Positions 4,532 to 63,252 of a stretch of DNA of 64,000 bases are shown in pieces. The notes under the pieces were generated by a model that was given only the letters and a program-made list of their open reading frames with translations, was not told where the DNA came from and made no database searches. Origin of the DNA: a bacterium (GTDB lineage Bacteria; Patescibacteriota; Minisyncoccia; Phycocordibacterales; UBA9973); assembly GCA_021824345.1 (NCBI GenBank), contig JAKAKW010000012.1, forward strand, positions 1,491-65,490, read 5' to 3'. Position numbers and translations under genes: made by a program. The first letter of the stretch is position 1. Each line of letters begins with the position of its first letter.

Positions 4532-4567
4532 CCAGAAGAGAAATTTTTGCAAGAAAAATAAAAACAA

Positions 4568-4638: not shown

Positions 4639-4655
4639 CAGAAGTTTGCGATATA

Positions 4656-4692: not shown

Positions 4693-4763
4693 AATATGCT
4701 ACAATATCAGGGTCGAAGAAGACCTCCGCGAGTCTCATTATAAATTTAATGAGAATCAATGTC

Positions 4764-7733: not shown

Positions 7734-7875
7734 CGGATCGCGCATGCCGAAGAATATTTCCTGAAAAAAGCCTTGGCAGGCGCGACGGCGCCGGACAGAG
7801 AAAATTTTCAGCGGAAAATTATGCGTGCTTTTCGAGAAGACCGACTTGTCCTCCGGCATGCTATACTCTCAGCAT

Positions 7876-8760: not shown

Positions 8761-8806
8761 GCCGCCGGTGGCAGGAGCGGGAAAAGCAGAAAAAGCGGGC
8801 GGGCAA

Positions 8807-8827
8807 GTGGGTGGCAAGGCCTCCCGC
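8807..8827. repeat. Family-B palindromic element (variant GTGGGTGGCAAGGCCTCCCGC) + T-run; terminator of prfB
   Basis: Near-palindrome followed by TTTTTCTGCTG. Related to the copies at 12284-12304 and 60331-60376. Confidence 0.5.
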
Positions 8828-8885
8828 TTTTTCTGCTGACATTGTTGCGAAAAACCAACTGTGATAAAATGGGAGGGTGATTTAC

Positions 8886-9560: not shown

Positions 9561-9568
9561 ATAGTCAA

Positions 9569-9591
9569 GGGCGGAGGGTTACCCTCCGCCC
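9569..9591. repeat. Family-A palindromic element GGGCGGAGGGTTACCCTCCGCCC
   Basis: Hairpin-forming palindrome directly after the ftsE stop. The same core recurs at 17748, 22270, 28302, 32766 and 36309. Confidence 0.6.
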
Positions 9592-9646
9592 TTGGCGGTG
9601 AAAAAGTTTAATTTGCTATAATGGGAGGTATTGATTTGGAAAAAAG

Positions 9647-10564
9647 ATGATCAAATTCATAAGAATCACAAAGGCGGGATTTTTGAACTTCAAGCGGAGC
9701 GGCACTCTTTCCACGGCCGGGGTGCTGATGATGATAATCACTCTTTCCGTGATCGCCTCCATAATACTTCTTCAAGCTGCCCTGAACTTTTCCTTGAATC
9801 AGATCAAGGACAAAGTGGACGTGACCATATACTTTAACGCGGGCTCTCCGGAAGACAAGATTCTTTCCATCAAGGATTCTCTCCTGGCTCTTCCGGAAGT
9901 GCAGTCGGTGGCATACACCAGTGCCGACGAGGCTCTGGCTGAATTCCGGGCCAGGCACGTGGGAGACTACGCCACCATCGCCGCCTTGAACGAAGTTAAT
10001 TTGAATCCTTTGGGCGCTTACCTGGACGTAAAAGCCAAAGACCTTCCGCAATATGAAAGCATTGCCAAGCTTCTTTCCTCTGGCAATTTTCTTTCTTCGG
10101 ATTCCAGTTCTATCATTGATAAGATAAACTACAACGACAATAAATCCATTATTGACAAGCTGAATTCCATCATCGGCGGCGCGGAGCGCCTGGGCCTGCT
10201 TATCACCCTGATTCTCATAATCATTTCCATAATCATAACTTTCAATACTATCCGGCTTGCCATTTTCACCTCTCGCGAAGAGATAGGAGTGATGCGCCTA
10301 GTGGGAGCGAACAACCTTACCATTCGCGGACCCTTTATGGTGGAAGGGATCATCTACGGGCTTCTTTCCACCATTCTTACTCTTGCCATTTTCTTTCCGA
10401 TCACCGGCTGGCTGGGCGCAAACATGACCGGCTTCCTCGGGCTGAATCTGAACGACTATTACACCGCAAACTTCTTCCAGATCCTGGTTATCCTGCTTCT
10501 TTCCGGCGCGGCCCTGGGAATCATTTCCAGTTTTTTGGCGACCAGAAAATATTTGAAAAAGTGA
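9647..10564 (+). CDS. ftsX: Cell division permease FtsX
   Basis: 305 aa. N-terminal TM segment, periplasmic domain, then C-terminal TM bundle with the FtsX-type motif (GVMRLVGANNLTIRGPF). Adjacent to ftsE. Confidence 0.8.
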   Translation: MIKFIRITKAGFLNFKRSGTLSTAGVLMMIITLSVIASIILLQAALNFSLNQIKDKVDVTIYFNAGSPEDKILSIKDSLLALPEVQSVAYTSADEALAEFRARHVGDYATIAALNEVNLNPLGAYLDVKAKDLPQYESIAKLLSSGNFLSSDSSSIIDKINYNDNKSIIDKLNSIIGGAERLGLLITLILIIISIIITFNTIRLAIFTSREEIGVMRLVGANNLTIRGPFMVEGIIYGLLSTILTLAIFFPITGWLGANMTGFLGLNLNDYYTANFFQILVILLLSGAALGIISSFLATRKYLKK

Positions 10565-10614
10565 TCTTTGGTTTTAATTATCAGCCGGGCGCAAGTAGTT
10601 TTAAAAAATAAATC

Positions 10615-12267
10615 ATGTCCAAGAAAGCAACAAAATACATATTTGTGGTGGGGGGAGTCATGTCGGGGGTCGGAAAAGGAGTGGCTGCGGCTTCCATCGG
10701 GAAGATATTGCAGTCGAGAGGAATGAAAGTAACGGCTTTGAAGATCGATCCTTATGTGAACGTGGATGCCGGCACCATGAATCCCACCGAACACGGAGAA
10801 GTGTTCGTCCTGGACGACGGCACCGAATGCGATCAGGACATGGGCAACTACGAGCGCTTTCTTGACCGAGACTTGTCCCGTACCAATTACATGACTACGG
10901 GCAGCATTTATCTTTCACTCATTCAAAAAGAACGTAATCTGGAATTCAAAGGAAGGTGCGTAGAAGTGGTTCCGGATGTCCCGCTGGAGGTTTTACATCG
11001 GGTAGACAAAGCGGTGGAAAAAAGCAACGCGGATATAGCCATTATAGAGATAGGAGGCACGGCAGGAGAATATCAGAACATTCTTTTCTTGGAGGCGGCG
11101 CGGATTTTAAAGGTTAAAAATCCTAAAGATGTGCTTCTGGTACTGGTAAGTCATATTCTCACTTTGGGGGCTGGAGGAAATGAACTTAAAACGAAACCCA
11201 CTCAGTATGCCGCTCATACTTTAAACTCTGCCGGTCTGCAAGCGGACATGATCCTTTCTCGCGCTTCGGTTCCCATTGATGAAAAAAGGAAGGAAAAACT
11301 GGCTTTTGTCTGTGGCTTGGCCTCCAAAGAAGATGTTATATCGGCTCCAAATGTGAAAAATATATACCAAGTGCCTGTAAATTTTGAAAATGACGGAATA
11401 GCGGATCGAATTTTTAAAAAATTGGAAATTACTCCAAGGAAGCGCGACATGAAAGAATGGCGGGCAATGGTAAATAAGATGAACAACGCTGTGAAGCCTG
11501 TGCGGATAGGAGTAGTTGGAAAGTATTTTAATACTGGAGAATTCGTGCTTGAGGACTCATATATATCCGTGCTTGAATCCATCAAGCACGCCGCCGGATA
11601 CTTAAACCTCTCGCCTAAGATTGAGTGGTTAGATTCCAGTGTCTATGAAAAAAATCCTGCTTCCTTGAAAGAGCTCAAAAAATACGACGGCATTATTGTT
11701 CCCGGAGGCTTCGGCAGCCGGGGGATAGAGGGAAAGATAAAAACGGCGGAGTACTGCCGGAAGAACAAGATTCCGTACTTCGGGCTTTGCTACGGCATGC
11801 AGATTGCGGTCATTGAATATGCCCGGAACGTTCTCGGATTGAAGGACGCCCATACGGCGGAAATAGACGGAAAAACAAAACACCCCGTGATAGACATCAT
11901 GCCGGAACAGAAAAAGAATTTGAAAGAAAAAAACTACGGCGCCACCATGCGGCTCGGCGCGTATCCCGCGAATCTTAAAGCGGGAAGCATCGCCGGAAAA
12001 GCATACGGGGTTTCAAGCATTTCCGAAAGGCACCGCCATCGCTATGAAGTGAACCCGGAATACGTTGAACGGATAGAGAAAGGAGGATTGAATTTTTCCG
12101 GAAGGTCCCCGAACGGCAGACTGATGGAAATCGCCGAATTGCCGAAGAGCGCGCATCCTTTCTATCTGGGCACCCAGTTTCATCCCGAGTTGAAATCTCG
12201 CCCGCTTCATCCTCATCCGCTTTTCAAAGAGTTTTTGAAGGCGGCCTCGGCAAGGAAGCATAAATAA
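10615..12267 (+). CDS. pyrG: CTP synthase
   Basis: N-terminal synthetase domain (YIFVVGGVMSGVGKGV). C-terminal class I glutamine amidotransferase (GLCYGMQ, HPE). 550 aa. Confidence 0.9.
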   Translation: MSKKATKYIFVVGGVMSGVGKGVAAASIGKILQSRGMKVTALKIDPYVNVDAGTMNPTEHGEVFVLDDGTECDQDMGNYERFLDRDLSRTNYMTTGSIYLSLIQKERNLEFKGRCVEVVPDVPLEVLHRVDKAVEKSNADIAIIEIGGTAGEYQNILFLEAARILKVKNPKDVLLVLVSHILTLGAGGNELKTKPTQYAAHTLNSAGLQADMILSRASVPIDEKRKEKLAFVCGLASKEDVISAPNVKNIYQVPVNFENDGIADRIFKKLEITPRKRDMKEWRAMVNKMNNAVKPVRIGVVGKYFNTGEFVLEDSYISVLESIKHAAGYLNLSPKIEWLDSSVYEKNPASLKELKKYDGIIVPGGFGSRGIEGKIKTAEYCRKNKIPYFGLCYGMQIAVIEYARNVLGLKDAHTAEIDGKTKHPVIDIMPEQKKNLKEKNYGATMRLGAYPANLKAGSIAGKAYGVSSISERHRHRYEVNPEYVERIEKGGLNFSGRSPNGRLMEIAELPKSAHPFYLGTQFHPELKSRPLHPHPLFKEFLKAASARKHK

Positions 12268-12283
12268 GAAGAAAGTGGGAGAA

Positions 12284-12304
12284 GTGGGAGGCAAGGCCTC
12301 CCAC
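12284..12304. repeat. Family-B palindromic element GTGGGAGGCAAGGCCTCCCAC (terminator-like) after pyrG
   Basis: Perfect 9-bp stem with a 3-nt loop. Preceded by the partial copy AGTGGGAG. Confidence 0.55.
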
Positions 12305-12420
12305 TTTGCCCCTCCGGCTGGTTGCGCGGATTTTTGTTTGCTGATATTATGGGCGCAAGATCCTCCTGAAGGACAAAAGGTCGAAGCCAGTTTTGCGGAA
12401 ACATTTCCGCTTAAATTCCA

Positions 12421-12537
12421 TGAATAAACTGATGGAGGAGATTCTCAAGAATAAAAACATCCGCAACAGGGAGAAGCTGGAGCTTCTCGCCGGAAGCGAG
12501 ATGAGCGCCGGCTCTCCTTGGGCCGGGGAAGAGTAGG
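12421..12537 (+). CDS. Possible small protein (38 aa)
   Basis: ATG-initiated ORF (MNKLMEEILKNKNIRNREKLELLAGSEMSAGSPWAGEE) directly followed by a strong terminator. Below the track's length cutoff. Confidence 0.2.
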
Positions 12538-17702: not shown

Positions 17703-17747
17703 AACGGGATATTATATCATGAAAACATAAGGCATGGCGGAGGGGGA

Positions 17748-17770
17748 GGACGGAGGGTAACCCTCCGTCC
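17748..17770. repeat. Family-A palindromic element (variant GGACGGAGGGTAACCCTCCGTCC)
   Basis: Perfect palindrome between eno and gpmA. Preceded by the partial copy GGCGGAGGGGGA. Confidence 0.55.
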
Positions 17771-22269: not shown

Positions 22270-22290
22270 GGCGGAGGGTAACCCTCCGCC
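22270..22290. repeat. Family-A palindromic element GGCGGAGGGTAACCCTCCGCC
   Basis: Perfect 21-bp palindrome between iscS and iscU. Confidence 0.6.
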
Positions 22291-26452: not shown

Positions 26453-26499
26453 TGTTCATAACGAGCCAGGAAACAATCCCCGGCAAAAATCAAGGAATA

Positions 26500-26537
26500 A
26501 CGAAAAATACCCCCGAAATTCGGGGGTATTTTTCGTT
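26500..26537. terminator. Bidirectional terminator-like hairpin AAAAATACCCCCGAA|TTCGGGGGTATTTTT
   Basis: Perfect inverted repeat with flanking A/T runs. Confidence 0.55.
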
Positions 26538-26579
26538 CATTTCCGTAGCTCTTCAGAAATCTTTTTCTTACTAAGCGGC

Positions 26580-26696
26580 AGGATTCTGCTCGGGCTGTAC
26601 AGGAGCGGCAGTGTTTCCCTGAGGAGCGGCAGTGTCTCCCTGAGGAGCGGCAGGATTCTGCTGACCGTCGTTGTTTGTATTCTGATCCATAAAAGT
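26580..26696 (-). CDS. Possible small repeat peptide (38 aa)
   Basis: MDQNTNNDGQQNPAAPQGDTAAPQGNTAAPVQPEQNPAA with a tandem TAAPQG repeat. Ends just before the terminator. Below the track cutoff. Confidence 0.2.
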
Positions 26697-28301: not shown

Positions 28302-28322
28302 GGCGGAGGGTAACCCTCCGCC
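28302..28322. repeat. Family-A palindromic element GGCGGAGGGTAACCCTCCGCC
   Basis: Perfect palindrome between the convergent GH18 gene and the membrane oxidoreductase. Confidence 0.6.
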
Positions 28323-32765: not shown

Positions 32766-32789
32766 GGGGCGGAGGGTTACCCCCGCCCC
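32766..32789. repeat. Family-A palindromic element variant GGGGCGGAGGGTTACCCCCGCCCC
   Basis: Between the ABC permease stop and the sigma factor start. Confidence 0.5.
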
Positions 32790-36308: not shown

Positions 36309-36363
36309 GGCGGAGGGTAAGGGCGGAGGGTAACCCCTGCCTGCCGGCAGGCAGGCTCCGCCC
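36309..36363. repeat. Composite/nested Family-A palindromic element
   Basis: GGCGGAGGGTAA + GGGCGGAGGGTAACCCCT + inner palindrome GCCTGCCGGCAGGC + CTCCGCCC. Confidence 0.5.
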
Positions 36364-44314: not shown

Positions 44315-44902
44315 TTATTGGTTGTTAATACGGCTATGATAACCAAGTTCTAAATCTTTTAGTAGTCGAGAAAAAGATGCTTCATTATCTCCCTCCCATG
44401 CATACCAAGTTATAAAGTTACCTCCATGTGATTTACTTATTATATTTAACACTTTTTGAACAACCGAGAAAATTTTTTCTATTTCTAAAGTATATATTTT
44501 CTCTTGTTGTGGGTTTTTGGGTTCATGCGCTGTAATGTTGTGTCGAAGAGTTTTAATTCTTTTTATCTCTTCTTGGATAGTGCTCAAGTGATAATTTGCC
44601 TCTCTTATATCATTAGAAGGTAGATTTTGTATTAAGGTTTGCAATTTGAGACTATCTTTTGGTTTATCGAAGAATTTATAAAGATCAGTAATGAAAGCAT
44701 TTTCAGTTGCATATAAAACACCACTAAAAATTCCACCATACCGGTTAAGGATACTGGCACGTCTATTTACTTCCTCTTTACCAACTTCCGGTATTGAAAG
44801 TGATTTACGGATATACTTCCAGATTTGAAAGCAACCATATGCACGATTCATTCTATGTACCAGCTTCCCAAAATCAGTTGTGGTGTCTATGTTAATCTCC
44901 AT
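44315..44902 (-). CDS. Hypothetical protein with HEPN-like R-x5-H motif (possible abortive-infection/RNase)
   Basis: LRHNITAHEP. AT-rich gene. 195 aa. Confidence 0.4.
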   Translation of the reverse strand: MEINIDTTTDFGKLVHRMNRAYGCFQIWKYIRKSLSIPEVGKEEVNRRASILNRYGGIFSGVLYATENAFITDLYKFFDKPKDSLKLQTLIQNLPSNDIREANYHLSTIQEEIKRIKTLRHNITAHEPKNPQQEKIYTLEIEKIFSVVQKVLNIISKSHGGNFITWYAWEGDNEASFSRLLKDLELGYHSRINNQ

Positions 44903-44928
44903 GTTTTAATTAATGAGCCCTTGGATAC

Positions 44929-45396
44929 CTACATTTTAAGATGAGCCCATCTAATCCAGTTACCCAGGAACCTACCTGATAAGTCGACAAGAGTTAAATC
45001 TTTTCCATTTACGGGACTCTTTTGTCCATGAAAAAGATTACATCTTATTTGGTATATAAAATCAACTACCTGACTAAAATCGGAAGTATCTTTTAGTTCT
45101 TTATATTCTCCGCGGTGATTAGGGCGCATGTCCTCAATGCGCGGATACTGCATCAGTCCTTGTAAGTCTGATGTGTCGAATTCTTTATCTATAAATAATT
45201 GTTTAAGTGAATTATCTGAATTTTTCAGCCAATCAATTTTTTGAGTATCACTATCTGCTTCAGATTCTGAAACCATATACGCATCTAGGCACATGTAATA
45301 GATGAAAAATCGAACGAACGGATCCAAATTATCTTTGGAAAGTTTCTTTTCTCTTAGAATCCACCAGTCGACTATATTTTTGAGGTTTTCATTCAT
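44929..45396 (-). CDS. HEPN-domain protein (R-x4-HG motif)
   Basis: IRCNLFHGQKS near the C-terminus of a 155-aa, helix-rich protein. Confidence 0.5.
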   Translation of the reverse strand: MNENLKNIVDWWILREKKLSKDNLDPFVRFFIYYMCLDAYMVSESEADSDTQKIDWLKNSDNSLKQLFIDKEFDTSDLQGLMQYPRIEDMRPNHRGEYKELKDTSDFSQVVDFIYQIRCNLFHGQKSPVNGKDLTLVDLSGRFLGNWIRWAHLKM

Positions 45397-45410
45397 AGCT
45401 GATATTGACG

Positions 45411-45478
45411 CTCCTCGGACTCCGAAAGCGTCTCAAACTGGCTGGCATTATGGCACGAAGTTAGAACTCGGAAGCCTT
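45411..45478. repeat. ~70-nt island repeat element, full copy 1
   Basis: TTGACGCTCCTCGGACTCCGAAAGCGTCTCAAACTGGCTGGCATTATGGCACGAAGTTAGAACTCGG. About 82% identical to the copy at 50917-50983. Confidence 0.6.
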
Positions 45479-45480
45479 AA

Positions 45481-46062
45481 TTAATCAAAAGAATTAACCA
45501 CATCGGGCAGTTCAAGACAAGCATCTTCACTATCAAAAGCCCCTGAAAAATGTTTAGCATTATGTTTTATTATTAATTCCGCGCTTAACTTTTCTTTCAG
45601 TATATTCCCATGTTCTAACGGAACGTAAGGGTCGTTATCGGAATGGATTAAAACGAATTTATTTGCCTTATTTCTTATCTTTTCAAATTCAAAGTCTTTG
45701 ACAAAGAAATTTTTCAATTCATCAAAGCCTAAATTATTCACAAACCCGGCGACAAGAACGACGGTTCCCACCTTTTCATTTTCATCAAGAGACTCCAGAT
45801 ACCTAAGTATCGTCACACTGCCGGCGCTGTGTCCAATGAGGTTGATGTCCTCGTTTGGTTCGCCGACCGCTTCTTTTAAAACCGGCAACCACTTTTCTAA
45901 ATTAGGATTTTCTGTATCGGGAAAGCTAAGAACATCTACTTCATATCCCTTTTTCTCCAATTCTCTTTTCGCATAAGGGTACCAGCAATATTCCGGATAA
46001 CCTCCCCAGCAGTGAGCGATGATAGCCTTTTTCATATTTTTATTATACAAAACATGGGTCAA
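45481..46062 (-). CDS. Alpha/beta hydrolase, YdeN/RBBP9-like serine hydrolase
   Basis: Nucleophile elbow IGHSAGS. 193 aa. Confidence 0.6.
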   Translation of the reverse strand: MTHVLYNKNMKKAIIAHCWGGYPEYCWYPYAKRELEKKGYEVDVLSFPDTENPNLEKWLPVLKEAVGEPNEDINLIGHSAGSVTILRYLESLDENEKVGTVVLVAGFVNNLGFDELKNFFVKDFEFEKIRNKANKFVLIHSDNDPYVPLEHGNILKEKLSAELIIKHNAKHFSGAFDSEDACLELPDVVNSFD

Positions 46063-46083
46063 AATTACGAGATGATCTTATGG

Positions 46084-46103
46084 CGCGAAGTTGGAACTTT
46101 TTT
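46084..46103. repeat. Island repeat element, 3'-portion copy (TATGGCGCGAAGTTGGAACT)
   Basis: Matches the 3' third of the full copies. Confidence 0.45.
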
Positions 46104-46357
46104 AGCTAATAATTCTTTAAGTTTTTTTAAATCCATCTCTGTTCGGAAATGAAGAATATTCCCTGAAAATGAGATATATCAGCGATCCATCGTTACAATC
46201 ACAAGTGAATTCATTCCGTCCTCAAAATGTCCGCCCAATTTGCTCTTTTGGTGATGTAGGAATACAATTCAGTTAACAATGATCGCATGTAATGAAAGAA
46301 ACCCTGTATAAGATGGAAAATATAGTCGAGAAAGGAATGCCAACTTAGGTCGAAACT

Positions 46358-49300
46358 ATGCACGAGACATCCGACAGGAAAATAATTCTGGCGACCGAGA
46401 GAAATGACACGTCTCATGAACTGAGAGGACACTTCAATCGGGACACATATCTAAAAACCGTAGAGCGCGCACTTGAGCGTGCCGAGACAAAAGAGAAAAT
46501 CATTGCGGTCATACGCGACGCAATCCGCGGACAGGCGGGACGAAAGGATCTTGAGGAACTCTTCGCATCAATCCGGTTCACATCGGATAAGAGCGACGAG
46601 GAGCGCTTTATCACCACCGACCGCTACATCACGATGGAGCTCGACGAGATTGAAGAATCACTTGCCGATCCAGACACGCGCGCCGAGTTCGACCGGATGT
46701 CCTTTGACGAATTCAAGAATGAGACACGGGAAGAGGTTGGCAGTCTTGTCGCACCAGAACTCAAGGACGCAGGCGCACCAGAACTTACACGGGTACTTAA
46801 GTATGTCGGCGAACGGCTGATCGTGCCCGACTACAATGTATCGGAGCTTATTGGGTTCATAAACGACTACTGCACCATCGCGCCGGGAAGAGAAGTGATT
46901 GTAGATCGGTGCGTATTCGGCGCAGATCCGAAAGAAAAGAATAATTTGTTCAGCGCGCGTAGCGATCTTAAGGAAATCCTCGAAGATCCCGAAACGTGCG
47001 AGAAGATAGACATTATCATATCCAGCAATCTCATCGAGCGATTCACATTCTCCGCCGGTCTGTCGCATTCGACGGATAAATCGGATTCAGATATGCGACT
47101 GTTCTTGAATGCGGTGTTGATTGAGAGCCTTAAACTTGCCGCGCACAACGAATATCTGACGATCACGTCCAAAGATCGGATCTACGCGCACGCTGTCAAT
47201 AGGATCACTGAAAAACGGCTCGCGGATATCCATGCGTTTGACTCCACCCTTACCACGATCGACCTGGACAATCTCCGCGATTTCCAAATACTGGAAGGTC
47301 TGCCTGAAGCAGGCCGTGCGTTCTGCAAGAAGATCTATGAAGCAACCGGGCTCGCGGGCACCGGCGCTTTCAACCGGATCGGTATCAGCTATTTCTCCGA
47401 CGCACTTGCCGACCCGGAAAAGTTTCGCAAGCTCGAACTCGCGTATGACCTTGGTGCGATCAGCGGTTTTACCTCTTCCTACGAAGGTGATCTGACGAAA
47501 AGAATTTTCACCTGGAGCGATGAACAGATTAAGAGCGTCGCCATGGGCTTCAAGACCGGCCTCGTGAAGGGGCCTTCGGATGGACGCGCCATCGCGCGGA
47601 TTCTCACCCTAAATACCGATGACCTCCTCTCTCTCAACGAAGCCGGGGAGACACTCTTGGTCGGCAATGAACTGCTCAATGCGCTCCGCGCATCGAGCCC
47701 CGAAGACCGCGCAGAGTATAAAAGCATCCTCGCTTCGATCGAGGGAAACCAATGGGTTAAGGAGGAGAAAAAAATGGAACTCCTACGGTATGCTGAAGAA
47801 CTCCGCACACTCACCCCGGACGCCCGTGCATTCCTCGATGCATGGCACGCGCACCAAGGACAATTCTACAGTAGCCAGGTTGAAGCGTACACCGAACCAC
47901 TCAAGAAAGCGAGCCTCTATCCCGATGTCCTCGCCCGCATGGCCGATCGGTACCGCGACCTGGACAACCAGAAGCTTATGTTCAATCTGCTCTCGGACGG
48001 ATATATGGACCTCATAGACATCGACCGCGAGCTCTCCGCGTTCGCGCGGGATCCCAACGCCTACCTCCTCAAATTTCCTCGCCCGTCCGATGTCTTCGAT
48101 CATTTTCGCGAGTTCGAAGACATTATGAATCGCCGCAATCAACCCATGCGCGACGATGTTCACAAAACAATTTTTTTCAGCACGTTCGTCGCGCAGGCCA
48201 CGACCCGCATATCGAATAATGTGGATTTCCCTTACACTACCGACGAGCGCCACGTTTCAGAACTCGCGGGGCGCCTCGCTTCTTGGTACGCCAGCGCGTA
48301 TGATGCGCAGGAAATTCTTTCCACGATCGTCCACATGCACGACGATCTTGCAGACGTCACGTCGGTGCTCGAGCGCATCACGGATGACCCGGATTCCTTT
48401 TTTAAACAGCGCCCGCAGGACGTGATGAAGAATTACGACGCAATCGCGGCGGAACTTGCGAGCCGCGGCAAACGTCTCCACCAGACTACGCTCGACGTGG
48501 CATTCGAGAACACCTTGCGCATGAACCCCGCTCTCCTCATGCGGGAAACCGAGTTTCCATTCACGTCGGAACAGCAAACGATCGCGGACCTCTTCCAGCG
48601 TATTCACAAGTCCCCGTCCCACGAGATAAAGAACATGGACGTCGAGATCGCTGAACAGATCGCTCGGAACGGCGATCTCTCCACCTATGAGGACCGCTAC
48701 CGCGTGATCGAAGAGATCTTCGTCAAGAATAATCTTCCATTTGTCGGCAAGCAAGAGAAGGTCTGCGAGGTGCTGCACCCTGAGATCGAGACGCGGGAAA
48801 ATTCCAGCCCGGTTCTCCAATCCCTCCACGGCACAAACGCGCGGAGGCTACTCGTCTTCAAGGATCTGATGCGCGCAAGCGTACAGAGCCTCAATATGAA
48901 CCTAGAGCAGTATCTCCTAGTCCTTAAGAATGGCGCTACAGTCCTTGACCGATTCGAATCCGGAGCAACGCTCGACGACGACGAAACAGAACAGTTGAAA
49001 TATTTCTTCCGAAAGATAAACGCTCTTACCGAGAACACGCGATTGAACGCGAATGCCACGACCTTTGATCCCGATCGGACGAGTCTCGCCGAGAACCTCG
49101 CCGCACTTCGAAAGAATTTCGGTGTACGCAAGGGGGAAACGATTACCGACAAGTTCACTCGGACGTTCCTGCGGCGGATCGACATCAACTCCATTGATGA
49201 CGCGCTTAGGCAGTTCATCAATCTGCGGAGCGTCGCAGACACGCGCAACCGTGAATTCGCATCATCCGGAAAAATTATTCTCAGTCCGACGGATCTCGCG

Positions 49301-50725
49301 AAAGGCGTCGACTCCGCCTTCTTCGACACCTTCCTCGACCGCGGCGTCTATTCCCCAGAGTTCATCGGCGCAGAAACGGAAGTCGCGAAAGCAAAGGCGA
49401 AGCGAACCGACATGACCCCATGGGACACCGACGTGATCACTGTCGGAGACCGCGATGCGCGCGTGATCGTAGAAGACTCAACGGCTAGCGCATACGGCGA
49501 CGTTATCATAATCGTCCGCGATCGCGGCCAATTCGACCATACCAAGGTCGGCCAACCGCTCCCTGCCGACTCGGGCAAAATGGAACTCTTCAGAACGGGC
49601 GGGACGAACAGCGACCACTTTGGAATCCGCACAGGGTTCGGCTCCACGGAGATCAGCGCGCTTCTCGTGAAGGATAAGATTGCAACGGATGATCGTGCAC
49701 TCTCCGAAATAAAATTCTCAATCGCGAAGAAGGGTTTCTACATCCCCGTCTGCGATAAATCGGGGCGCGTGCTCTTTTCGAGTAATGAATTTGAAACATA
49801 CCGCGCTATCTTCCGTGGCATCGACCGCTACCACGGGGACCCGATCGCTGTGGATGAAACATGGCGCGAATCCCTCTTCCGTGAGGACATCGAATCCGTC
49901 GCACAGACAGAAGGGAATTTGGAAAAGCTCCAAGTGCTCCGCGCCGGGCTCTACGCCGATCTGGCGCACGACCTTAAGGGCAACGGGATCACTCTGCACC
50001 AGGAACGCTATGACGACAGCGTCGTCGGCGCACGGATCGTTGACACCGGCTCGACGGGCCGCGGTGCCGCGCTTGACGAGGGATACGACTTCGACTTTGT
50101 CGTGAAGCTCGACGACGTCGACTTCAACAAGGTTCCCGCCATTACCAATACACTCGAATCCAAATATCCCCTCAACACGAGTTACGAACGCAACGGCATG
50201 CACACGTTCCGCTTTAAGAATTTCGAGCGCGACGGCGAGACGATCAGCCTCGATATCAGCTTCATAAAGAAATCCGACAGCGAAGAACTAGACGCAAATG
50301 AGGCTGTCACGCAGAAATATAATTCGATCCGAAACAAGAGCGGCGAAAAGGCGTGGCTCGACACGCTGACGAACGTGCGCTTCGCAAAACGCGAACTGAA
50401 ACGCGCGGAATGTTATAAGAAAGGAATGGCGGGAGTAGGAGAACAGCAAGGGGGGCTTGGCGGTATCGGCGTGGAGAACTGGATACTCAAGTACGGTGGC
50501 AATGCGATAAAAGCGTTCCGCGACTTCCACGACCACGCATACCGCGAGGGCACGCTCGTGCCGTTCGCAGAATTCAAACAGACTTATCACGTGTTCAGTG
50601 CGGGAGAGAATGTCCGGGGTGGCGTGCGGGCCGAGGATTTCGTCGCACATATGGACGAAACAGGATACCGCAAAATGGCGGAGCTTTCCCGAAAGTTCGT
50701 TCTATCGGAAGCTGACTTGCTCTGA
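46358..50725 (+). CDS. Giant (1455 aa) protein with C-terminal Pol-beta-superfamily nucleotidyltransferase motif; visibly GC-rich relative to neighbours
   Basis: An uninterrupted 4.37-kb ORF with an in-frame stop 4 codons upstream of the ATG. Near-C-terminal GSTGRGAALDEGYDFDFVV (hG[GS]-x9-13-DhD nucleotidyltransferase signature, as in GlnE/GlnD, cGAS/DncV-like and MNT enzymes) followed by GGLGGIGVENWIL. The remaining ~1150 aa have no motif I recognise. The flanks are AT-rich. Confidence 0.6.
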   Translation: MHETSDRKIILATERNDTSHELRGHFNRDTYLKTVERALERAETKEKIIAVIRDAIRGQAGRKDLEELFASIRFTSDKSDEERFITTDRYITMELDEIEESLADPDTRAEFDRMSFDEFKNETREEVGSLVAPELKDAGAPELTRVLKYVGERLIVPDYNVSELIGFINDYCTIAPGREVIVDRCVFGADPKEKNNLFSARSDLKEILEDPETCEKIDIIISSNLIERFTFSAGLSHSTDKSDSDMRLFLNAVLIESLKLAAHNEYLTITSKDRIYAHAVNRITEKRLADIHAFDSTLTTIDLDNLRDFQILEGLPEAGRAFCKKIYEATGLAGTGAFNRIGISYFSDALADPEKFRKLELAYDLGAISGFTSSYEGDLTKRIFTWSDEQIKSVAMGFKTGLVKGPSDGRAIARILTLNTDDLLSLNEAGETLLVGNELLNALRASSPEDRAEYKSILASIEGNQWVKEEKKMELLRYAEELRTLTPDARAFLDAWHAHQGQFYSSQVEAYTEPLKKASLYPDVLARMADRYRDLDNQKLMFNLLSDGYMDLIDIDRELSAFARDPNAYLLKFPRPSDVFDHFREFEDIMNRRNQPMRDDVHKTIFFSTFVAQATTRISNNVDFPYTTDERHVSELAGRLASWYASAYDAQEILSTIVHMHDDLADVTSVLERITDDPDSFFKQRPQDVMKNYDAIAAELASRGKRLHQTTLDVAFENTLRMNPALLMRETEFPFTSEQQTIADLFQRIHKSPSHEIKNMDVEIAEQIARNGDLSTYEDRYRVIEEIFVKNNLPFVGKQEKVCEVLHPEIETRENSSPVLQSLHGTNARRLLVFKDLMRASVQSLNMNLEQYLLVLKNGATVLDRFESGATLDDDETEQLKYFFRKINALTENTRLNANATTFDPDRTSLAENLAALRKNFGVRKGETITDKFTRTFLRRIDINSIDDALRQFINLRSVADTRNREFASSGKIILSPTDLAKGVDSAFFDTFLDRGVYSPEFIGAETEVAKAKAKRTDMTPWDTDVITVGDRDARVIVEDSTASAYGDVIIIVRDRGQFDHTKVGQPLPADSGKMELFRTGGTNSDHFGIRTGFGSTEISALLVKDKIATDDRALSEIKFSIAKKGFYIPVCDKSGRVLFSSNEFETYRAIFRGIDRYHGDPIAVDETWRESLFREDIESVAQTEGNLEKLQVLRAGLYADLAHDLKGNGITLHQERYDDSVVGARIVDTGSTGRGAALDEGYDFDFVVKLDDVDFNKVPAITNTLESKYPLNTSYERNGMHTFRFKNFERDGETISLDISFIKKSDSEELDANEAVTQKYNSIRNKSGEKAWLDTLTNVRFAKRELKRAECYKKGMAGVGEQQGGLGGIGVENWILKYGGNAIKAFRDFHDHAYREGTLVPFAEFKQTYHVFSAGENVRGGVRAEDFVAHMDETGYRKMAELSRKFVLSEADLL

Positions 50726-50854
50726 CCCACATCGGCATATGCTAACACTGTATAAGAAGTGATCGTAGGAAGATCCGACAGGCAAACTATGCCAATCATC
50801 AAATTCGAACCAATTTTGCGTTGAAAATTATACTCGTTTTTCTTCCGTCATTTT

Positions 50855-50872
50855 GACGCTCCTCGGAACGAT
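50855..50872. repeat. Island repeat element, internally deleted mini-copy (TTGACGCTCCTCGGAACG...)
   Basis: 5' 15 nt of the element joined to a tail (GGAACGATTTTAGCT) resembling the 46084 copy's tail (GGAACTTTTTTAGCT). Confidence 0.4.
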
Positions 50873-50916
50873 TTTAGCTGTTTCAAATATCCTTGCAGGG
50901 CTTGATGCTCCTCGGA

Positions 50917-50983
50917 GTCCGAACGCGCCTCAAGCTGGCTGGCCGTATGGTATGAAGTTGGAACTGTGGTTGCTTAAAATCTT
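50917..50983. repeat. ~70-nt island repeat element, full copy 2
   Basis: TTGATGCTCCTCGGAGTCCGAACGCGCCTCAAGCTGGCTGGCCGTATGGTATGAAGTTGGAACTGTGG. Confidence 0.6.
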
Positions 50984-50989
50984 AAACGA

Positions 50990-52141
50990 TCAACTGTTTG
51001 TAGAAATTTTATTGATAAACCTCCTTGCTCTTTCATCAGGAGACGTTTTATCTACTTTCGGTTCCCAAGCTTTATATACTTCCAAAATTCCTGTATAAAT
51101 AGCATTGCCTGTTGTTATAAAGCGGTGTTGAAGTAACAACACTGCATTGCTTTCAACTAAAAAAATAAAACCAGGTTTTACACAATTTAACGATAAATGG
51201 TCAATAGTTCCTGAGTTTATAATTCTACGAGAGAATTCTTCAAGAGTGTCCAATAAGGGAATGAGGTTTTCTGAATGTGCTCTAGAAAAAGAATAAAGTC
51301 TGTGTTGTCCGTCAATGATCCAACAAGCGCTGTAGCTATTTTTAATAGTCAAAGTGCCGACTTCTGAGTGATTTTTCGACTCTAATCCTGAAATTTTCAC
51401 GAAATTCTTATCTCCTTCCTTTAGCGAAATAATCACATTTGTCGGAAAAATCCCTCCATTATCAAGGAATTGTTGGATTTTTCTTATACGATTTTTATCC
51501 AACATTCTTTGGTAAAAATCTTCTTTTTGTGATCTTCTTCGTGCAACATAAGAAAATTTTAGTAATTCTTTTGGATTTGCGTAAAAACTATATGTTACGT
51601 ATTTTCCTATCTTTGTTTTTAAAGCGGCAACATTTAATTGTTCGTTTTCTGGCGGCCGAATTCCATAATCAGCAAGGAAATTAAAAACTGCGTATTCTCC
51701 TATTTTTTCGTAAAGCTCACTGTAATATTCTAGAAGATTTTCATCAGCATACCAGAAATGAGTTTCTTTGAATAATTCTTTTTCTGATTCAGGAATCTCA
51801 ATTTTTTTTGTTATGAAAATAAATTTGACAAATTTACATTGGGAATATTCTGGAATAGTTTTGTATCCTTCTAGAACCATTCTGGCTCTTTCTTTGGTAG
51901 CTAATATATCTTGGCGAAGATTTTTTTTGACTTTTCTGCCTGCTGCTTTACATTCAAAAACGAATAATATATCCTTGTATCTTCCACAAGCGTCAATCTG
52001 ATTCTTTTCTCCATTAGGCGCTATATGAAAATCTTGTCCCCCTTTTACATCAGAAAACTTTAGTTTTTCTTCTAAAAAAATTTTTACCTCGTTTTCAAAA
52101 TCTTTTCCGTAATCTTTTTTTTCTAATTCAATTTCTTCCAT
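50990..52141 (-). CDS. DGQHR-domain protein (DndB/DpdB-like, ParB/Srx-fold)
   Basis: Exact DGQHR motif in ACWIIDGQHRLYSF. 383 aa, AT-rich. Confidence 0.7.
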   Translation of the reverse strand: MEEIELEKKDYGKDFENEVKIFLEEKLKFSDVKGGQDFHIAPNGEKNQIDACGRYKDILFVFECKAAGRKVKKNLRQDILATKERARMVLEGYKTIPEYSQCKFVKFIFITKKIEIPESEKELFKETHFWYADENLLEYYSELYEKIGEYAVFNFLADYGIRPPENEQLNVAALKTKIGKYVTYSFYANPKELLKFSYVARRRSQKEDFYQRMLDKNRIRKIQQFLDNGGIFPTNVIISLKEGDKNFVKISGLESKNHSEVGTLTIKNSYSACWIIDGQHRLYSFSRAHSENLIPLLDTLEEFSRRIINSGTIDHLSLNCVKPGFIFLVESNAVLLLQHRFITTGNAIYTGILEVYKAWEPKVDKTSPDERARRFINKISTNS

Positions 52142-58297: not shown

Positions 58298-59581
58298 GTG
58301 AAGATCAAAAACTATCAAGAGCTAGCGATGAGCGAGGAGAGGAAAAAAGCGCTCAAGATCGCGGAGGCGGGGTATCAAGCCATAGACAGCGAAAATGTGA
58401 TAAACGGAGCCGTTTCCGTTTCTGACGACGCGCTCAAAGTACAGGGAAAAGAATTTCCGCTGGGCAAGGGAAAAATTTTAGTGATAGGGATAGGAAAGTG
58501 CTCTCTCTCCGCGGCCGGAGCCCTGGAAAAAATTCTGGGCGATCGCATCTCGGGCGGGGCGGTTCTGGATGTGAAAGAAGGAAAACTTGAGCGCTTGGAA
58601 ACATACAAGGGCACCCATCCGCTTCCGAGTCCCCAGAACAAAAAAGCGACCGAAAGAATCGTGAGCCTTTTGTCCGGCCTTTCCGAAGACGATCTTGTTA
58701 TTTTCATAATTTCCGGAGGCGGTTCTACTCTTCTGTATCTTCCGGAAGAGGGCAGAGAAAGCGAAGAGCTTCCGGTAATCCATGCTCTAATGGACGCGGG
58801 CGCTTCCATTCAGGAAATGAATACCGTGCGAAAGCATATGTCCAAGGCAAGGGGAGGATATTTGGCCAAATACATTTACCCCGCCAGGGGCATTGCCATG
58901 ATTTTTTCGGATGTGCCTGCAAACGATATCGGGTTCATATCTTCCGGCCCTACTGTGAAAGACGTCACCACAATAGAAGAAGCGGAGAAGGTGCTTTCCA
59001 AATACGGCATTCTGGAAAAATGCGGATTGAAAAACTGCGGGCTGATCCAGACTCCTAAAGAAGACAAATATTTTGAAAAAATGACGAATCTTCTGGTAGT
59101 TTCAAACCAGACCGCTCTTGATGCGATGAAAAATGAAGCGGAGAAGCTCGGACTTAAGGTGAAAATGTGCAGCAGTTGCCTGGCGGGAGAGGCGCGAGAA
59201 GTGGGAAAGGGGCTGGTGGACGAATTGAATAAAGATGCGGAGCCCGGCACGGTGATGCTCTACGGCGGAGAAACCACAGTGACAGTGAAGCATGACAATC
59301 CCGGCGGGCGGAATCAGGAGCTGGCGCTTTCGGCTCTGCGATACATCGGCGAGGGGCAGATAGTTATGCCTCTTGCTTCAGACGGCATAGACAATACCGA
59401 TCATGCCGGCGCCATATGTGATACAATATCAGCCAAGAAGGCCAAGGATCTTAATTTGGATCTTGAAGATTACCTCTCCAGGAACGACTCGTATGATTTT
59501 TGGCAAAAAGTCGGGGATTTTATCCTGACCGGCGACACCGGTTCGAACGTGTCTGATTTAATAGTAACCATAAAGTTTTAA
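58298..59581 (+). CDS. Glycerate kinase (MOFRL family)
   Basis: MOFRL N- and C-terminal domain signatures (ILVIGIGKCS; IISGGGSTLL; LYGGETTVTV; DGIDNTDHAG). Confidence 0.8.
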   Translation: MKIKNYQELAMSEERKKALKIAEAGYQAIDSENVINGAVSVSDDALKVQGKEFPLGKGKILVIGIGKCSLSAAGALEKILGDRISGGAVLDVKEGKLERLETYKGTHPLPSPQNKKATERIVSLLSGLSEDDLVIFIISGGGSTLLYLPEEGRESEELPVIHALMDAGASIQEMNTVRKHMSKARGGYLAKYIYPARGIAMIFSDVPANDIGFISSGPTVKDVTTIEEAEKVLSKYGILEKCGLKNCGLIQTPKEDKYFEKMTNLLVVSNQTALDAMKNEAEKLGLKVKMCSSCLAGEAREVGKGLVDELNKDAEPGTVMLYGGETTVTVKHDNPGGRNQELALSALRYIGEGQIVMPLASDGIDNTDHAGAICDTISAKKAKDLNLDLEDYLSRNDSYDFWQKVGDFILTGDTGSNVSDLIVTIKF

Positions 59582-62064
59582 TGAATAAGAAAAAAAGCCT
59601 GACCCTTCTGTTTAAAGAAGTCGGAATTGAGGACGTCGGTTTGGTGGGCGGAAAGAACGCGTCGCTCGGGGAAATGATCCGCAATTTGAAATCCAAAGGG
59701 GTGCCGGTTCCGGACGGATTCGTGGTTACGGCCGAAGCCTACAGATATTTTTTGAAAAAGACCGGATTGAAAAAGGTGATCAGAGACATTTTGACCGGAC
59801 TTGATACCAAGAACCTGCCGGATTTGGCCAAACGCTGCCGGCAAGTGCGGGAGGCAATCAAAGCTACGGAATTTCCGGAAGACCTGAAAAAAGAAATCAT
59901 AGAGAACTATCGGAAGATGGAAAAAACTTACGGCAAGAATGCGGACGTGGCGGTACGTTCTTCAGCCACAGCCGAAGATCTTCCGGGCGCGTCATTTGCG
60001 GGCGAGCATGATACATATCTCAATATTCGCGGAGCGGAAGCGGTGGTGCGGGCGGCCCGGAGCGCCATGGCCTCGCTTTTCACTGAGCGCGCCACGTCCT
60101 ATCGGGTAGACAAGGGTTTTGACCACTTCAAGGTGGCGCTTTCGGTCGGCGTGCAGAAAATGGTGCGATCCGACCTGGCCTGCTCGGGAGTGATGTTCTC
60201 CGTAGATACCGAGTCTGGTTTCAAAGACGTGGTTTTGATAAACGGTTCTTGGGGCTTGGGAGAAATGATCGTTCAGGGCGAGGTTACTCCGGACGAATTT
60301 CTGGTGTGGAAGCCCGGGCTGGCGGGAGCGGTGGGAGGCCTTGCCTCCCACCGCAGTGGGAGGCAAGGCCTCCCACGCGTTCCGATCATTGACAAAAAGC
60401 TCGGCACCAAGAATCGCAAGATGATATATTCCTCCTCCGGCAGGACTTCCACCAAGGAGACAAAAGTAGTGAACACCTCTCTCGTTGAAAAAAACAGCTG
60501 GGTGCTTAGCGAACCAGAGATTCTCCAATTGGCGAAGTGGGGAGCGGAAATTGAAGCGCATTACACCAAAAAACACAAAGGGAAATGGACCCCGATGGAT
60601 ATGGAATGGGCCAAGGACGGCCGAACGGGGAAGCTTTTCATCGTGCAAGCCCGGCCGGAGACCGTGCAGGCGGGCCGTGATTTTTCCAAAATTACCGAGT
60701 ATGAATTGAAAGGAAAGGGAAGAGTAGTGACCAAAGGCACTTCCGTGGGCAGTAAGATTGCCAGCGGAAAGGCCCGGGTGATACTGAATCCGAAGAACAT
60801 TAAAGATTTTAAGAAAGGAGAAGTGCTGGTGACCGGCATGACTGATCCGGATTGGGAGCCAATCATGAAAATAGCCGCGGCCATTGTTACGGACAAGGGC
60901 GGAAGAACTTCCCATGCCGCCATCGTTTCCCGGGAGCTCGGCATTCCGTGCGTTGTCGGCACCGAGAATGCCACAAAGAAAATTAAAACCGGACAGATCG
61001 TTACGGTAGACACGGCCGGCACGGAGGGGGTGGTATACGCGGGGGCCGTTCCGTTTAAAACCGTCAGCCACGATATCAAGAACTTGAAAAATCCGAAGAC
61101 GAAAATCATGATGAATATTGCCACGCCGGATACCGCTTTTGAAAAATCTTTCCTGCCCAACAACGGAGTCGGCCTTGCCCGGGAAGAGTTCATCATCGCT
61201 TCAAACATCGGCATCCATCCCAACGCGCTTTTGAACTACGGAAAGATTTCTTCCGCCAAGAATGATCCGGCAAAAAGAAAACTGGCGAGGGAGATAGAAA
61301 AAAGAACTGCCGGATACGGCAGCAAGACGAAGTTTTACGTGGACAAGCTCGCCTACGGCATTGCCAAAATCGGCGCCGCTTTTTATCCGAACCCGGTTAT
61401 CGTGCGCTTTTCCGATTTCAAGACCAATGAATATCGCACGCTCTTGGGCGGAGAAATGTACGAACCGGAAGAGGAAAATCCGATGATCGGCTGGCGGGGA
61501 GCTTCGCGGTATTACGATCCGGACTTCGCGTCCGCGTTTGCCCTGGAAGTGAAAGCGATCAAAAAAGTGCGCGAGGAAATCGGACTCGCAAATGTGCAAG
61601 TCATGGTTCCTTTTTGCCGTACGGCGGAAGAAGGGAAGAAAGTAGTCGGCCTTATCGAAAAGAACGGCTTGAAACGAAAATCGGGATTGAAAATTTATGT
61701 GATGTGCGAGATTCCGGCAAACGTGATTCTTGCCGACAAATTTCTGGACGTGTTTGACGGAATGAGCATAGGAAGCAACGACCTCACCCAGCTCACGGTG
61801 GGAATTGACCGCGACGGAAATGAAAAAGTGAAAAAAATCACGAACGAAAACGACCAGTCGGTGAAAACGCTGGTCAGCCAGGTTATCAAGACATGCAAGC
61901 GCCGGCGCAAATATATAGGCATCTGCGGGCAGGCGCCTTCGGACTATCCTGAATTCGCCGAGTTCCTGGTGCGAGAGGGGATTGAAAGCATGTCTCTAAA
62001 TCCGGATACGGTAATCAAGACTATAGTAAATACTCTTGCCGTAGAAAAGAAAGTGCGCAGGTAA
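59581..62064 (+). CDS. ppsA: Phosphoenolpyruvate synthase (pyruvate, water dikinase)
   Basis: N-terminal ATP-grasp region, central phosphohistidine domain (GGRTSHAAIVSRELGIPCVVG), C-terminal PEP-utilising TIM barrel. 827 aa. Confidence 0.9.
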   Translation: MNKKKSLTLLFKEVGIEDVGLVGGKNASLGEMIRNLKSKGVPVPDGFVVTAEAYRYFLKKTGLKKVIRDILTGLDTKNLPDLAKRCRQVREAIKATEFPEDLKKEIIENYRKMEKTYGKNADVAVRSSATAEDLPGASFAGEHDTYLNIRGAEAVVRAARSAMASLFTERATSYRVDKGFDHFKVALSVGVQKMVRSDLACSGVMFSVDTESGFKDVVLINGSWGLGEMIVQGEVTPDEFLVWKPGLAGAVGGLASHRSGRQGLPRVPIIDKKLGTKNRKMIYSSSGRTSTKETKVVNTSLVEKNSWVLSEPEILQLAKWGAEIEAHYTKKHKGKWTPMDMEWAKDGRTGKLFIVQARPETVQAGRDFSKITEYELKGKGRVVTKGTSVGSKIASGKARVILNPKNIKDFKKGEVLVTGMTDPDWEPIMKIAAAIVTDKGGRTSHAAIVSRELGIPCVVGTENATKKIKTGQIVTVDTAGTEGVVYAGAVPFKTVSHDIKNLKNPKTKIMMNIATPDTAFEKSFLPNNGVGLAREEFIIASNIGIHPNALLNYGKISSAKNDPAKRKLAREIEKRTAGYGSKTKFYVDKLAYGIAKIGAAFYPNPVIVRFSDFKTNEYRTLLGGEMYEPEEENPMIGWRGASRYYDPDFASAFALEVKAIKKVREEIGLANVQVMVPFCRTAEEGKKVVGLIEKNGLKRKSGLKIYVMCEIPANVILADKFLDVFDGMSIGSNDLTQLTVGIDRDGNEKVKKITNENDQSVKTLVSQVIKTCKRRRKYIGICGQAPSDYPEFAEFLVREGIESMSLNPDTVIKTIVNTLAVEKKVRR
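60331..60376. repeat. Two inverted copies of the Family-B palindromic element inside the ppsA reading frame
   Basis: GTGGGAGGCCTTGCCTCCCAC-cgca-GTGGGAGGCAAGGCCTCCCAC. Encodes ...AVGGLASHRSGRQGLPR... in frame. Confidence 0.6.
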
Positions 62065-62130
62065 AATCAGCCGAAGCGCGAATACTGTTTTTCGGCTTTT
62101 CTTTGCGCGATTTAGTGGTAAAATATTGGC

Positions 62131-63252
62131 ATGACAAAAATAACCAAAAGAAACTTGGTGATCCTGGTGGTGCTGGTAATTGCGGCAGTGGTAGTTACTG
62201 TTTTTACCGGAAACAAAAAACCGCTTCTGCCGCCGGAGGCGATGAACGCCGGCGCCAAGGCCGCGTCGCAGGTTTCCATAATCAAGCAAGACATTAAAGA
62301 AAGTAATTTTTCCGGTTCCGTGTCCGTGATTTCCGGCTCGTCTGCCGCGGCGGCTGAAGCTGAAAAATTTATGGAAAAGGAAGTGGCGGATTTTCGCGAC
62401 AGGGCGAACAAGGAAGTTCCGGCCATGCGGGCCGAGTTCGGAGCGGACGCTCCTCCCGCCAAATATTCCATAAATCTTGACGCCAAGTACGTGACAAGTC
62501 CGGCCACAGAATCTGTAATAGTCAGCGAATACGTATACACCGGCGGCGCCAACGGCATGAGCACCTACAAAGTTTTTACCGGCTCTCTTTCCACCGGAAA
62601 GATCCTGTCTCTGGGTGAAATGGTCAAGCCTTCCGAGCAAAGCGCTTTTTCCATGCTCGTAAAGCAAAAACTCCTTGCCTGGGTTCCCGAGGGTCTGGAT
62701 CAGCAGTTGGTTTTTCCGGAAGAAGTGAACAAACTGTCATTTGCGGATTTTTCGGATTGGTCCATGGACAACGAGGGCCTTACCATATACTTTGACAAAT
62801 ACGCCATTGGCCCGGGAGTAATGGGAGCTTTGGCTTTTACTCTGCCGTATTTTGAACTGCAAAACTACCTTTCCGTTCCGGTTTCTATTTCTTCGGATTC
62901 CATATTCGGGTGCTATGTGAATCGCATCGGTAAAGATGTGTATTCGCTTCGCTTGGACAGCGAGGAAAACGGGCAGCTTGCCGGATCGCTTTCCTACCAA
63001 AATTACCAGAAAGACAGCTCTTCGGGCACTTTTGCCGGAGAGTACGACAACGGCATTCTCCTGGGCGATTACGTGTTTAGCTCCGAAGGCATGCAGTCGA
63101 TTCGACAGGTGGTATTTAAAAAAGAAGGCAGTTCTTTCGTGGAAGGATTCGGCCCGACTGAAACAAAGGACGGAAAAGAGATGCTCAAAGATCCGAAAAG
63201 CGCAACTTTTGATTCAAAATCCGCGTTTGTCAAAGAAGCCTGCGGAAACTAG
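62131..63252 (+). CDS. Membrane-anchored DUF3298/DUF4163-like (RsiV-like) protein
   Basis: N-terminal TM, then a domain with YVYTGGANGMSTYKVF and YFDKYAIGPG motifs typical of DUF3298 proteins. Confidence 0.5.
   Translation: MTKITKRNLVILVVLVIAAVVVTVFTGNKKPLLPPEAMNAGAKAASQVSIIKQDIKESNFSGSVSVISGSSAAAAEAEKFMEKEVADFRDRANKEVPAMRAEFGADAPPAKYSINLDAKYVTSPATESVIVSEYVYTGGANGMSTYKVFTGSLSTGKILSLGEMVKPSEQSAFSMLVKQKLLAWVPEGLDQQLVFPEEVNKLSFADFSDWSMDNEGLTIYFDKYAIGPGVMGALAFTLPYFELQNYLSVPVSISSDSIFGCYVNRIGKDVYSLRLDSEENGQLAGSLSYQNYQKDSSSGTFAGEYDNGILLGDYVFSSEGMQSIRQVVFKKEGSSFVEGFGPTETKDGKEMLKDPKSATFDSKSAFVKEACGN

Follow-up and report, generated by a model that had tools for sequence, protein, structure and literature searches.

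An inverted dimer of a repeated palindrome in frame within ppsA of a Paceibacterota genome

How does a gene of central metabolism come to hold, with its reading frame intact, a pair of hairpins that also occur between genes? The question is raised by ppsA, the gene for phosphoenolpyruvate (PEP) synthase, in a 64,000-nt stretch of contig JAKAKW010000012.1 (assembly GCA_021824345.1), which is referred to below as the window and comes from a bacterium of the Paceibacterota within the candidate phyla radiation (CPR). The genomes of CPR bacteria are among the smallest and most streamlined known, and dispersed repeats are not expected in them. An earlier note on this DNA had described two inverted 21-nt palindromes, with CGCA between them, lying in frame within ppsA, and both the sequence and the open reading frame (ORF) confirm this. 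In our assessment the locus probably reflects the insertion of a dispersed palindrome, resembling repetitive extragenic palindromes (REPs) and REP doublets forming hairpins (REPINs), which entered a tolerant loop of ppsA as an inverted dimer.

Two inverted palindromes within the ppsA reading frame

Positions 60331-60376 of the window read GTGGGAGGCCTTGCCTCCCAC-CGCA-GTGGGAGGCAAGGCCTCCCAC. The repeated unit, which we refer to as family 1, is 21 nt long (GTGGGAGGC-CTT/AAG-GCCTCCCAC) and forms a 9-bp perfect stem closed by a 3-nt loop. Because this 9-bp stem is perfectly palindromic, the orientation of a unit is set by its loop (CTT or AAG) alone. The two ppsA units are opposite in orientation, 4 nt apart and 100% complementary over 21 nt. 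The dimer folds as one hairpin, which reaches into its flanks for a total of 27 bp and has a computed folding energy of -34.2 kcal/mol as DNA (z=-10.9) and -60.3 kcal/mol as RNA (z=-10.6). The dimer is open in all six frames, and in the frame of ppsA the pair is read through without a stop codon to encode A250-VGGLASHRSGRQGLP-R266. Its composition also differs from that of its host gene, with a GC content of 72% for the insert vs 52% for ppsA. The gene itself looks functional, since the catalytic residues His445 and Cys782 of PpsA both fall in invariant alignment columns. The ORF scores 1126 bits against the NCBIfam model PRK06464 (cut-off 598), matches the Neisseria PpsA in PDB (2ols, E=4e-239) and carries the three Pfam domains PPDK_N, PEP-utilizers and PEP-utilizers_C.

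The same element is repeated at two intergenic sites, as the earlier note had proposed, with an exact copy after pyrG and a copy with 2 mismatches after prfB. When the window was searched with up to 3 mismatches allowed, three units were identical (21/21) and the fourth agreed at 19/21 positions; by comparison, no unit occurred in 100 dinucleotide-preserving shuffles. Over the ~72 kb covered in all, there are 4 units at 3 loci. Two of the three loci sit 17-47 nt past stop codons, and both intergenic copies share AA...TTT flanks. The prfB copy (8807-8827) is additionally nested in a larger palindrome, AGCAGAAAAAGCGGG...CCCGCTTTTTCTGCT. At the pyrG and ppsA loci the element is directly preceded by G[CT]GGGAG plus 2 nt, and the window has just two matches to the pattern GYGGGAGNNGTGGGAGGC, one at each of these loci. 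Because the pyrG copy has a similar prefix, the material inserted into ppsA probably includes the prefix at 60322-60330 as well.

Absence from relatives and position in a variable loop

Alignment with orthologues indicates that the segment is lineage-specific. It is missing from the protein alignment of the five closest PpsA orthologues listed (80-82% identity), and nothing resembling it was found at this loop in any of 119 CPR orthologues. No conserved segment of the same length was found in unrelated taxa either, and the Neisseria PpsA is ~15 residues shorter at the insert site. Two of the five closest orthologues were checked at the codon level and both are 14 codons shorter, reading K-P-N-L-(6 codons)-P-I-I-D vs K-P-G-L-(20 codons)-P-I-I-D in the window. 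The net gain over the nearest orthologues is therefore +42 nt or 14 codons, rather than the 16 residues of the earlier note, and the insertion boundaries are ambiguous. In this alignment the 46-nt dimer, together with 9 nt on its left (GCGGGAGCG) and 5 nt on its right (GCGTT), replaces 18 nt of the orthologues. GCG is found on both sides of the element, but the frame-consistent length is not given by such a repeat. The insert is not an assembly accident, because 10 contigs encode an identical PpsA protein, among them a MEGAHIT contig from ENA and a metagenome-assembled genome (MAG) from NCBI.

The position of the element within the protein was mapped onto an AlphaFold2 model built from a 65-sequence alignment, with a mean predicted local distance difference test (pLDDT) score of 82.8. 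Residues 251-264 (VGGLASHRSGRQGL), which are those encoded by the palindromes, have pLDDT<50 and, within the N-terminal ATP-grasp domain, are modeled as a coil that lies after helix 244-249 and before strand 269-273. Thus, the model places the element at a predicted disordered loop, and this loop also varies in length, as it contains between 0 and ~34 extra aa among the 119 CPR orthologues. We considered whether the loop might be a general hotspot for hairpin inserts and rejected this, as four other long inserts at the same loop are not comparably palindromic in their DNA (fold z of -2.1 to +0.65 vs -8.5 for the loop of the window). The loop is thus generally permissive, with the insert of the window as a special case. 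It should be noted that in another PpsA (P0091, L119 ~3740-3830) this loop holds a lineage-specific insert of 21 aa that differs from the one in the window and has a moderate fold (z=-2.1) and a bracketing 10-nt direct repeat (TATTCGGATG); it may be an independent insertion with target duplication.

Further palindromes and comparison with known systems

The window also contains a second perfect palindrome, family 2 (GGCGGAGGGTWACCCTCCGCC), with the consensus (G)GCGGAGGGT(A/T)ACCCTCCGC(C). Four copies in the window have an exact core and two are decayed, and one further copy lies slightly past its end (L112 19036-19056). Every family-2 site is in an intergenic gap, and most of the intact ones start 6-50 nt past the 3' end of a gene. 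Partial duplications of the left arm flank the copies at 17731 and 36304. One frame of family 2 contains a TAA stop codon, whereas family 1 has none. The density of sites of the two families in the window is roughly one per 8-20 kb. Neither family is present in the relatives L114 and L116. In L116, prfB and ftsE overlap and ftsE and ftsX are 10 nt apart, whereas the corresponding spacers of the window bear palindromes and measure 116 nt (prfB-ftsE) and 86 nt (ftsE-ftsX). Therefore, the palindromes are lineage-specific between genes, just as in ppsA. The positions of all of these features are given in Table 1.

Table 1. Positions of ppsA, its insert and the palindromic elements of the window
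Feature	Positions	Strand	Remarks
ppsA (PEP synthase / pyruvate, water dikinase), intact, hosts the insert	59581-62064	+	827 aa; profile, structure and alignment matches
Prefix GCGGGAG-CG	60322-60330	+	resembles the left arm of the unit; encodes A248-G249-A250
Family-1 unit 1, GTGGGAGGC-CTT-GCCTCCCAC, inverted	60331-60351	-	
4-nt spacer CGCA	60352-60355		loop of the long hairpin
Family-1 unit 2, GTGGGAGGC-AAG-GCCTCCCAC	60356-60376	+	
Family-1 intergenic copy, GTGGGAG-AA prefix and exact 21-mer (12284-12304)	12275-12304	+	17 nt past pyrG stop codon
Family-1 intergenic copy, 19/21 bases (2 mismatches)	8807-8827	+	in 116-nt prfB-ftsE spacer
Family-2 palindrome CAAGGGCGGAGGGTTACCCTCCGCCCTTG	9566-9594		6 nt past ftsE stop codon
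Family-2 palindrome, intergenic	17748-17770		preceded by partial duplicate of left arm
Family-2 palindrome GGCGGAGGGTAACCCTCCGCC	22270-22290		between convergent genes
Family-2 palindrome, identical to the 22270 copy	28302-28322		between convergent genes
Family-2 decayed copy (3 mismatches), intergenic	32769-32787		
Family-2 half-copy, left arm and loop, duplicated	36309-36336		abuts another palindrome, 36336-36355

The earlier note had called the intergenic family-1 copies terminator-like, which holds only in part. Like intrinsic terminators, the copies of the two families at gene ends are GC-rich perfect stems located 6-50 nt past stop codons, and the prfB copy is followed by TTTTTCTG, making it the sole copy with a T-run by eye. 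The ppsA dimer is followed by GCGTTCCGAT, and by eye no T-run follows the family-2 copies that were followed on the + strand. A scan for a hairpin-plus-T-run consensus in the regions 8600-12500 and 59500-62200 flagged no copy of either family there. Unlike terminators, near-identical stems stand after unrelated genes, which is a property of a repeat family and not of a terminator. At gene ends, both families probably act as 3'-end hairpins.

We also scanned the contigs of other genomes with GTGGGAGGCNNNGCCTCCCAC, which specifies the stem with any loop; the counts refer to the matches listed and are lower bounds. JBAYJV01 (Candidatus Paceibacterota SO_2016_GW1_64), an AT-rich genome of ~0.89 Mb in three contigs, has at least 15 exact copies of the 9-bp stem in the form GTGGGAGGC-TCA/TGA-GCCTCCCAC, extended to ~35 nt by (G)A(C/A)ATAT...ATAT(G/T)TC arms. 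Fourteen of the 15 are intergenic, while one (L099 5270) provides the last codons of a 227-aa ORF. A comparison of the window proteins with sampled regions of JBAYJV01 gave few and weak matches (29-48% identity). The 9-bp stem was also present, with the loops AGC/GCT, TCC, TCT and AGA among the matches listed, in MAGs of gut Clostridia and Desulfovibrio, where it is part of a conserved composite comprising a first hairpin (e.g. CAAAGGG-loop-CCCTTTG), a GGCGGTGGGT linker and GTGGGAGGC-loop-GCCTCCCAC. This composite is multi-copy within genomes and found across genera, its hairpins match no Rfam family, and it resembles either a mobile-element end or a structured RNA that lacks annotation. The remaining genome matches listed were mostly single chance matches or orthologous terminators (Serratia, Yersinia, Streptomyces), those from enterobacteria being single orthologous terminators. 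Among JGI metagenome contigs the exact 21-mer had one match (L117), which we rejected as a family member, as its flanks match a single-copy terminator locus of Serratia. There were 0 matches to either family in viral contigs, so we see no sign of a phage origin. An Rfam search of the window itself returned two tRNAs only.

The earlier note had further drawn a parallel with Rickettsia palindromic elements (RPEs). Reportedly, RPE-1, as presented by Ogata and colleagues in 2000, is about 100-150 bp long and encodes about 45-50 aa. The parallel stands as an analogy of behavior, since RPEs are likewise palindromic repeats found both between genes and in frame within genes, where they add a peptide and the protein is kept, and the ppsA element too lies in frame at a tolerant site in the gene of a known protein. 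Membership, on the other hand, is unsupported: compared by description and not by sequence, the element is only 46-55 nt long, lacks the CGTC tag that would relate it to RPE-4 and RPE-6, which have been equated with CGTC REPs (PMC3733652), and resides in a different phylum.

Intragenic REP dimers provide a closer precedent (PMC3733652). A REP is a short sequence, of about 14-40 nt, that can fold into a stem-loop (PMC12306157, PMC3733652), and the family-1 unit conforms to this with its 21 nt, 9-bp perfect stem and 3-nt loop. It likewise resembles REPs in being mostly extragenic and near gene ends, as are 2 of the 3 family-1 loci and all family-2 sites. Di Nocera 2013 reported that GTAG/CGTC REPs, which are GC-rich 20-40 bp stem-loops mostly at gene ends, sometimes lie wholly within ORFs of known proteins, with examples in Opitutus terrae and Rickettsia conorii (PMC3733652). 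More than half of these intragenic REPs are dimers or groups, and in some dimers the partners are separated by 1-5 bp and can fold as a single stem-loop (PMC3733652). REPs of these superfamilies bear a GTAG (or degenerate GTRG) or a CGTC tag at one end. Most GTAG-20 units of O. terrae carry GTGG in place of the GTAG tag (PMC3733652). The family-1 unit starts with GTGG as well, but here it is base-paired with CCAC in the stem and present at both ends rather than as a one-sided tail, and there is no CGTC. The ppsA insert also differs in its length of ~15 aa, which is shorter than the 20-30 aa typically added by the published intragenic dimers (PMC3733652), and in its host, a CPR bacterium with a genome of probably ~1 Mb.

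The ppsA pair is built like a REPIN, in which an inverted REP doublet makes a single hairpin (PMC3337134), as its two units belong to the same family, are inverted and 21/21 complementary, and fold as one hairpin. REPINs are mobilized by tyrosine transposases that are associated with REPs (RAYTs) and have been described as extragenic (Bertels & Rainey 2011, PMC3116915, PMC3337134), whereas the ppsA doublet is intragenic and no RAYT is found among the ~40 window ORFs. The gene of a cognate RAYT, a Y1 HUH transposase, usually has REPs on its flanks. The spacer is 4 nt here vs 34-110 nt in P. fluorescens SBW25. Furthermore, the doublet does not appear to be the replicating unit, as there is one doublet and two singlet loci in 72 kb, which is a small sample. 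The element does not resemble a MITE, a miniature transposable element that derives from an insertion sequence and has terminal inverted repeats plus a target-site duplication, as it has no clean flanking repeat, is a palindrome over its whole length, and no insertion sequence was seen.

Origin of the insert, and other features of the window

The overall reading of the earlier note, that palindromic elements were inserted in frame within ppsA, is supported, and from this we infer the mobility of the element. We envisage that one dimer, probably with its 9-nt left-arm-like prefix, would have entered ppsA in the lineage leading to this organism and landed in the ATP-grasp domain, at a surface loop where any length is tolerated. 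The enzyme would have been kept intact by the combination of a stop-free element, a final length that is a multiple of three and a disordered loop, and would now carry about 14-16 extra residues (VGGLASHRSGRQGLP). The route of arrival may have been hairpin-guided single-strand transposition in trans (REPIN/RAYT-like) or microhomology-primed template switching onto another copy. As a side effect, the mRNA probably contains a 27-bp duplex, which could slow ribosomes or attract RNase III.

Several observations weigh against the insertion of a REP-like dimer. Only one dimer, and family-1 units at no more than three loci, were seen in 72 kb, and no Y1/RAYT (PF01797-type) transposase was identified among the ~40 window ORFs. 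No clean target-site duplication was seen at the ppsA insert relative to the codon alignment with the orthologues. The nearest orthologue is only ~82-83% identical, and there is no true empty site or polymorphic allele among the orthologues. In other lineages, the PpsA loop lengthens by non-palindromic means. Lastly, a protein-database search for further in-frame copies using the six-frame peptides of the dimer yielded 30 word-sharing candidates, none with E<=10, the peptides being too short.

A serious alternative to transposition, if an unlikely one, is an origin that involves no transposase at all. During replication or repair, a nascent strand ending in G[CT]GGGAG-like microhomology would have switched template onto a hairpin copy located elsewhere, copied it and snapped back to leave an inverted duplicate, and the elements would spread by templated copying, without a dedicated enzyme. 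This deserves consideration because the ppsA insert lacks a target-site duplication, a motif resembling the left arm stands 2 nt upstream of the element at pyrG as well as at ppsA, and partial left-arm duplications occur beside the family-2 copies at 17731 and 36304. The perfect inverted copy within the dimer and the lack of a transposase among the window ORFs fit as well. However, the prefix may be nothing more than a section of a longer element, and microhomology-templated insertions rarely yield many near-identical copies at gene ends. The same data are also compatible with transposition in trans.

It is more improbable still that the intragenic hairpin is kept for a function, whether in tuning ppsA expression, as a site of RNase III action or of translational pausing, or as a site for a protein that binds gene-end hairpins. 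The two arms have stayed perfect and match the pyrG copy exactly, but a recent insertion predicts perfect arms equally. The RNA duplex of 27 bp at -60 kcal/mol speaks for a function, as does the recurrence of the 9-bp stem in at least 15 copies, nearly all of them intergenic, in another Paceibacterota genome. No relative keeps any structure at the PpsA loop, and no advantage is apparent in terminating or cleaving a transcript one third into an essential domain. Ordinary in-situ expansion of the loop or an assembly artefact, with only a coincidental likeness to the intergenic hairpins, is barely credible. The loop is indeed hypervariable in length among CPR PpsAs, but there is 21/21 identity vs none in 100 shuffles, a fold z of about -11 vs -2.1 or weaker for other long loop inserts, and an identical protein on 10 contigs from different assemblers.

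The proposed insertion of a REP-like dimer into ppsA raises a broader and more tentative idea, which we regard as rather unlikely at present. Ultra-small CPR (Paceibacterota) genomes, such as those of the window and the unrelated JBAYJV01, might carry their own REP/REPIN-like families built on a shared GGGAGGC/GCCTCCC stem, which is similar to Shine-Dalgarno and anti-Shine-Dalgarno sequences, and these families might spread without a recognizable RAYT and occasionally become coding in core enzymes. Among 81 ORFs near the JBAYJV01 repeats there was no strong transposase match in the best 25 of 40 families. If true, streamlined genomes would contain a class of miniature mobile DNA that is active and undescribed. 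Our search of the literature library found nothing linking CPR bacteria to REP, REPIN or MITE elements, and an intragenic REP-like dimer has apparently not yet been described in this group. The ppsA insert would extend the host range of REP-like elements and provide a clean case of a non-coding hairpin becoming a peptide in an enzyme of central metabolism, although the advance is incremental because in-frame REP dimers are already documented in other phyla. Perfect palindromes of this kind can also break assemblies and mislead the prediction of terminators or genes in MAGs.

The gene names used by the earlier note (ppsA, prfB and pyrG) agree with the best NCBIfam models, which assign the ORF 10615-12267 to pyrG and the ORF 7825-8760 to prfB, with ftsE and ftsX lying between them. 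Of the 353 positions of the prfB model, the latter RF2-like ORF matches only 111-350, and its score of 346 bits is slightly below the curated cut-off of 370. The release factors of relatives are short too (241-321 aa), and no CTTTGAC frameshift site was seen near the ORF.

Some further features of the window lie apart from the palindromes described above. Positions 1-4700, at the contig end, have 56% GC and are full of internal repeats, with 1-189 identical to 1066-1254 and blocks of 130-250 nt repeating at 73-78% identity with a spacing of ~1.83 kb; the small ORFs of this region have no Pfam matches. These repeats are followed by a tRNA (4568-4638), a G9/C9 palindrome (4659-4690) and a gene with a Bro-N domain. 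The region probably represents an element integrated at a tRNA gene, and the assembly break there may be due to it. A candidate defence island at 44315-52141 includes an HEPN AbiU2-like protein (44315-44902), a 1455-aa ORF without a Pfam match (46358-50725) and a DndB/NERD-like protein (50990-52141). Lastly, within a doubtful 119-aa ORF that has no Pfam match, positions 26499-26663 hold a 39-nt perfect palindrome with an 18-bp stem (AACGAAAAATACCCCCGAA/TTCGGGGGTATTTTTCGTT), followed by three tandem 21-nt repeats (AGGAGCGGCAGTGTTTCCCTG).

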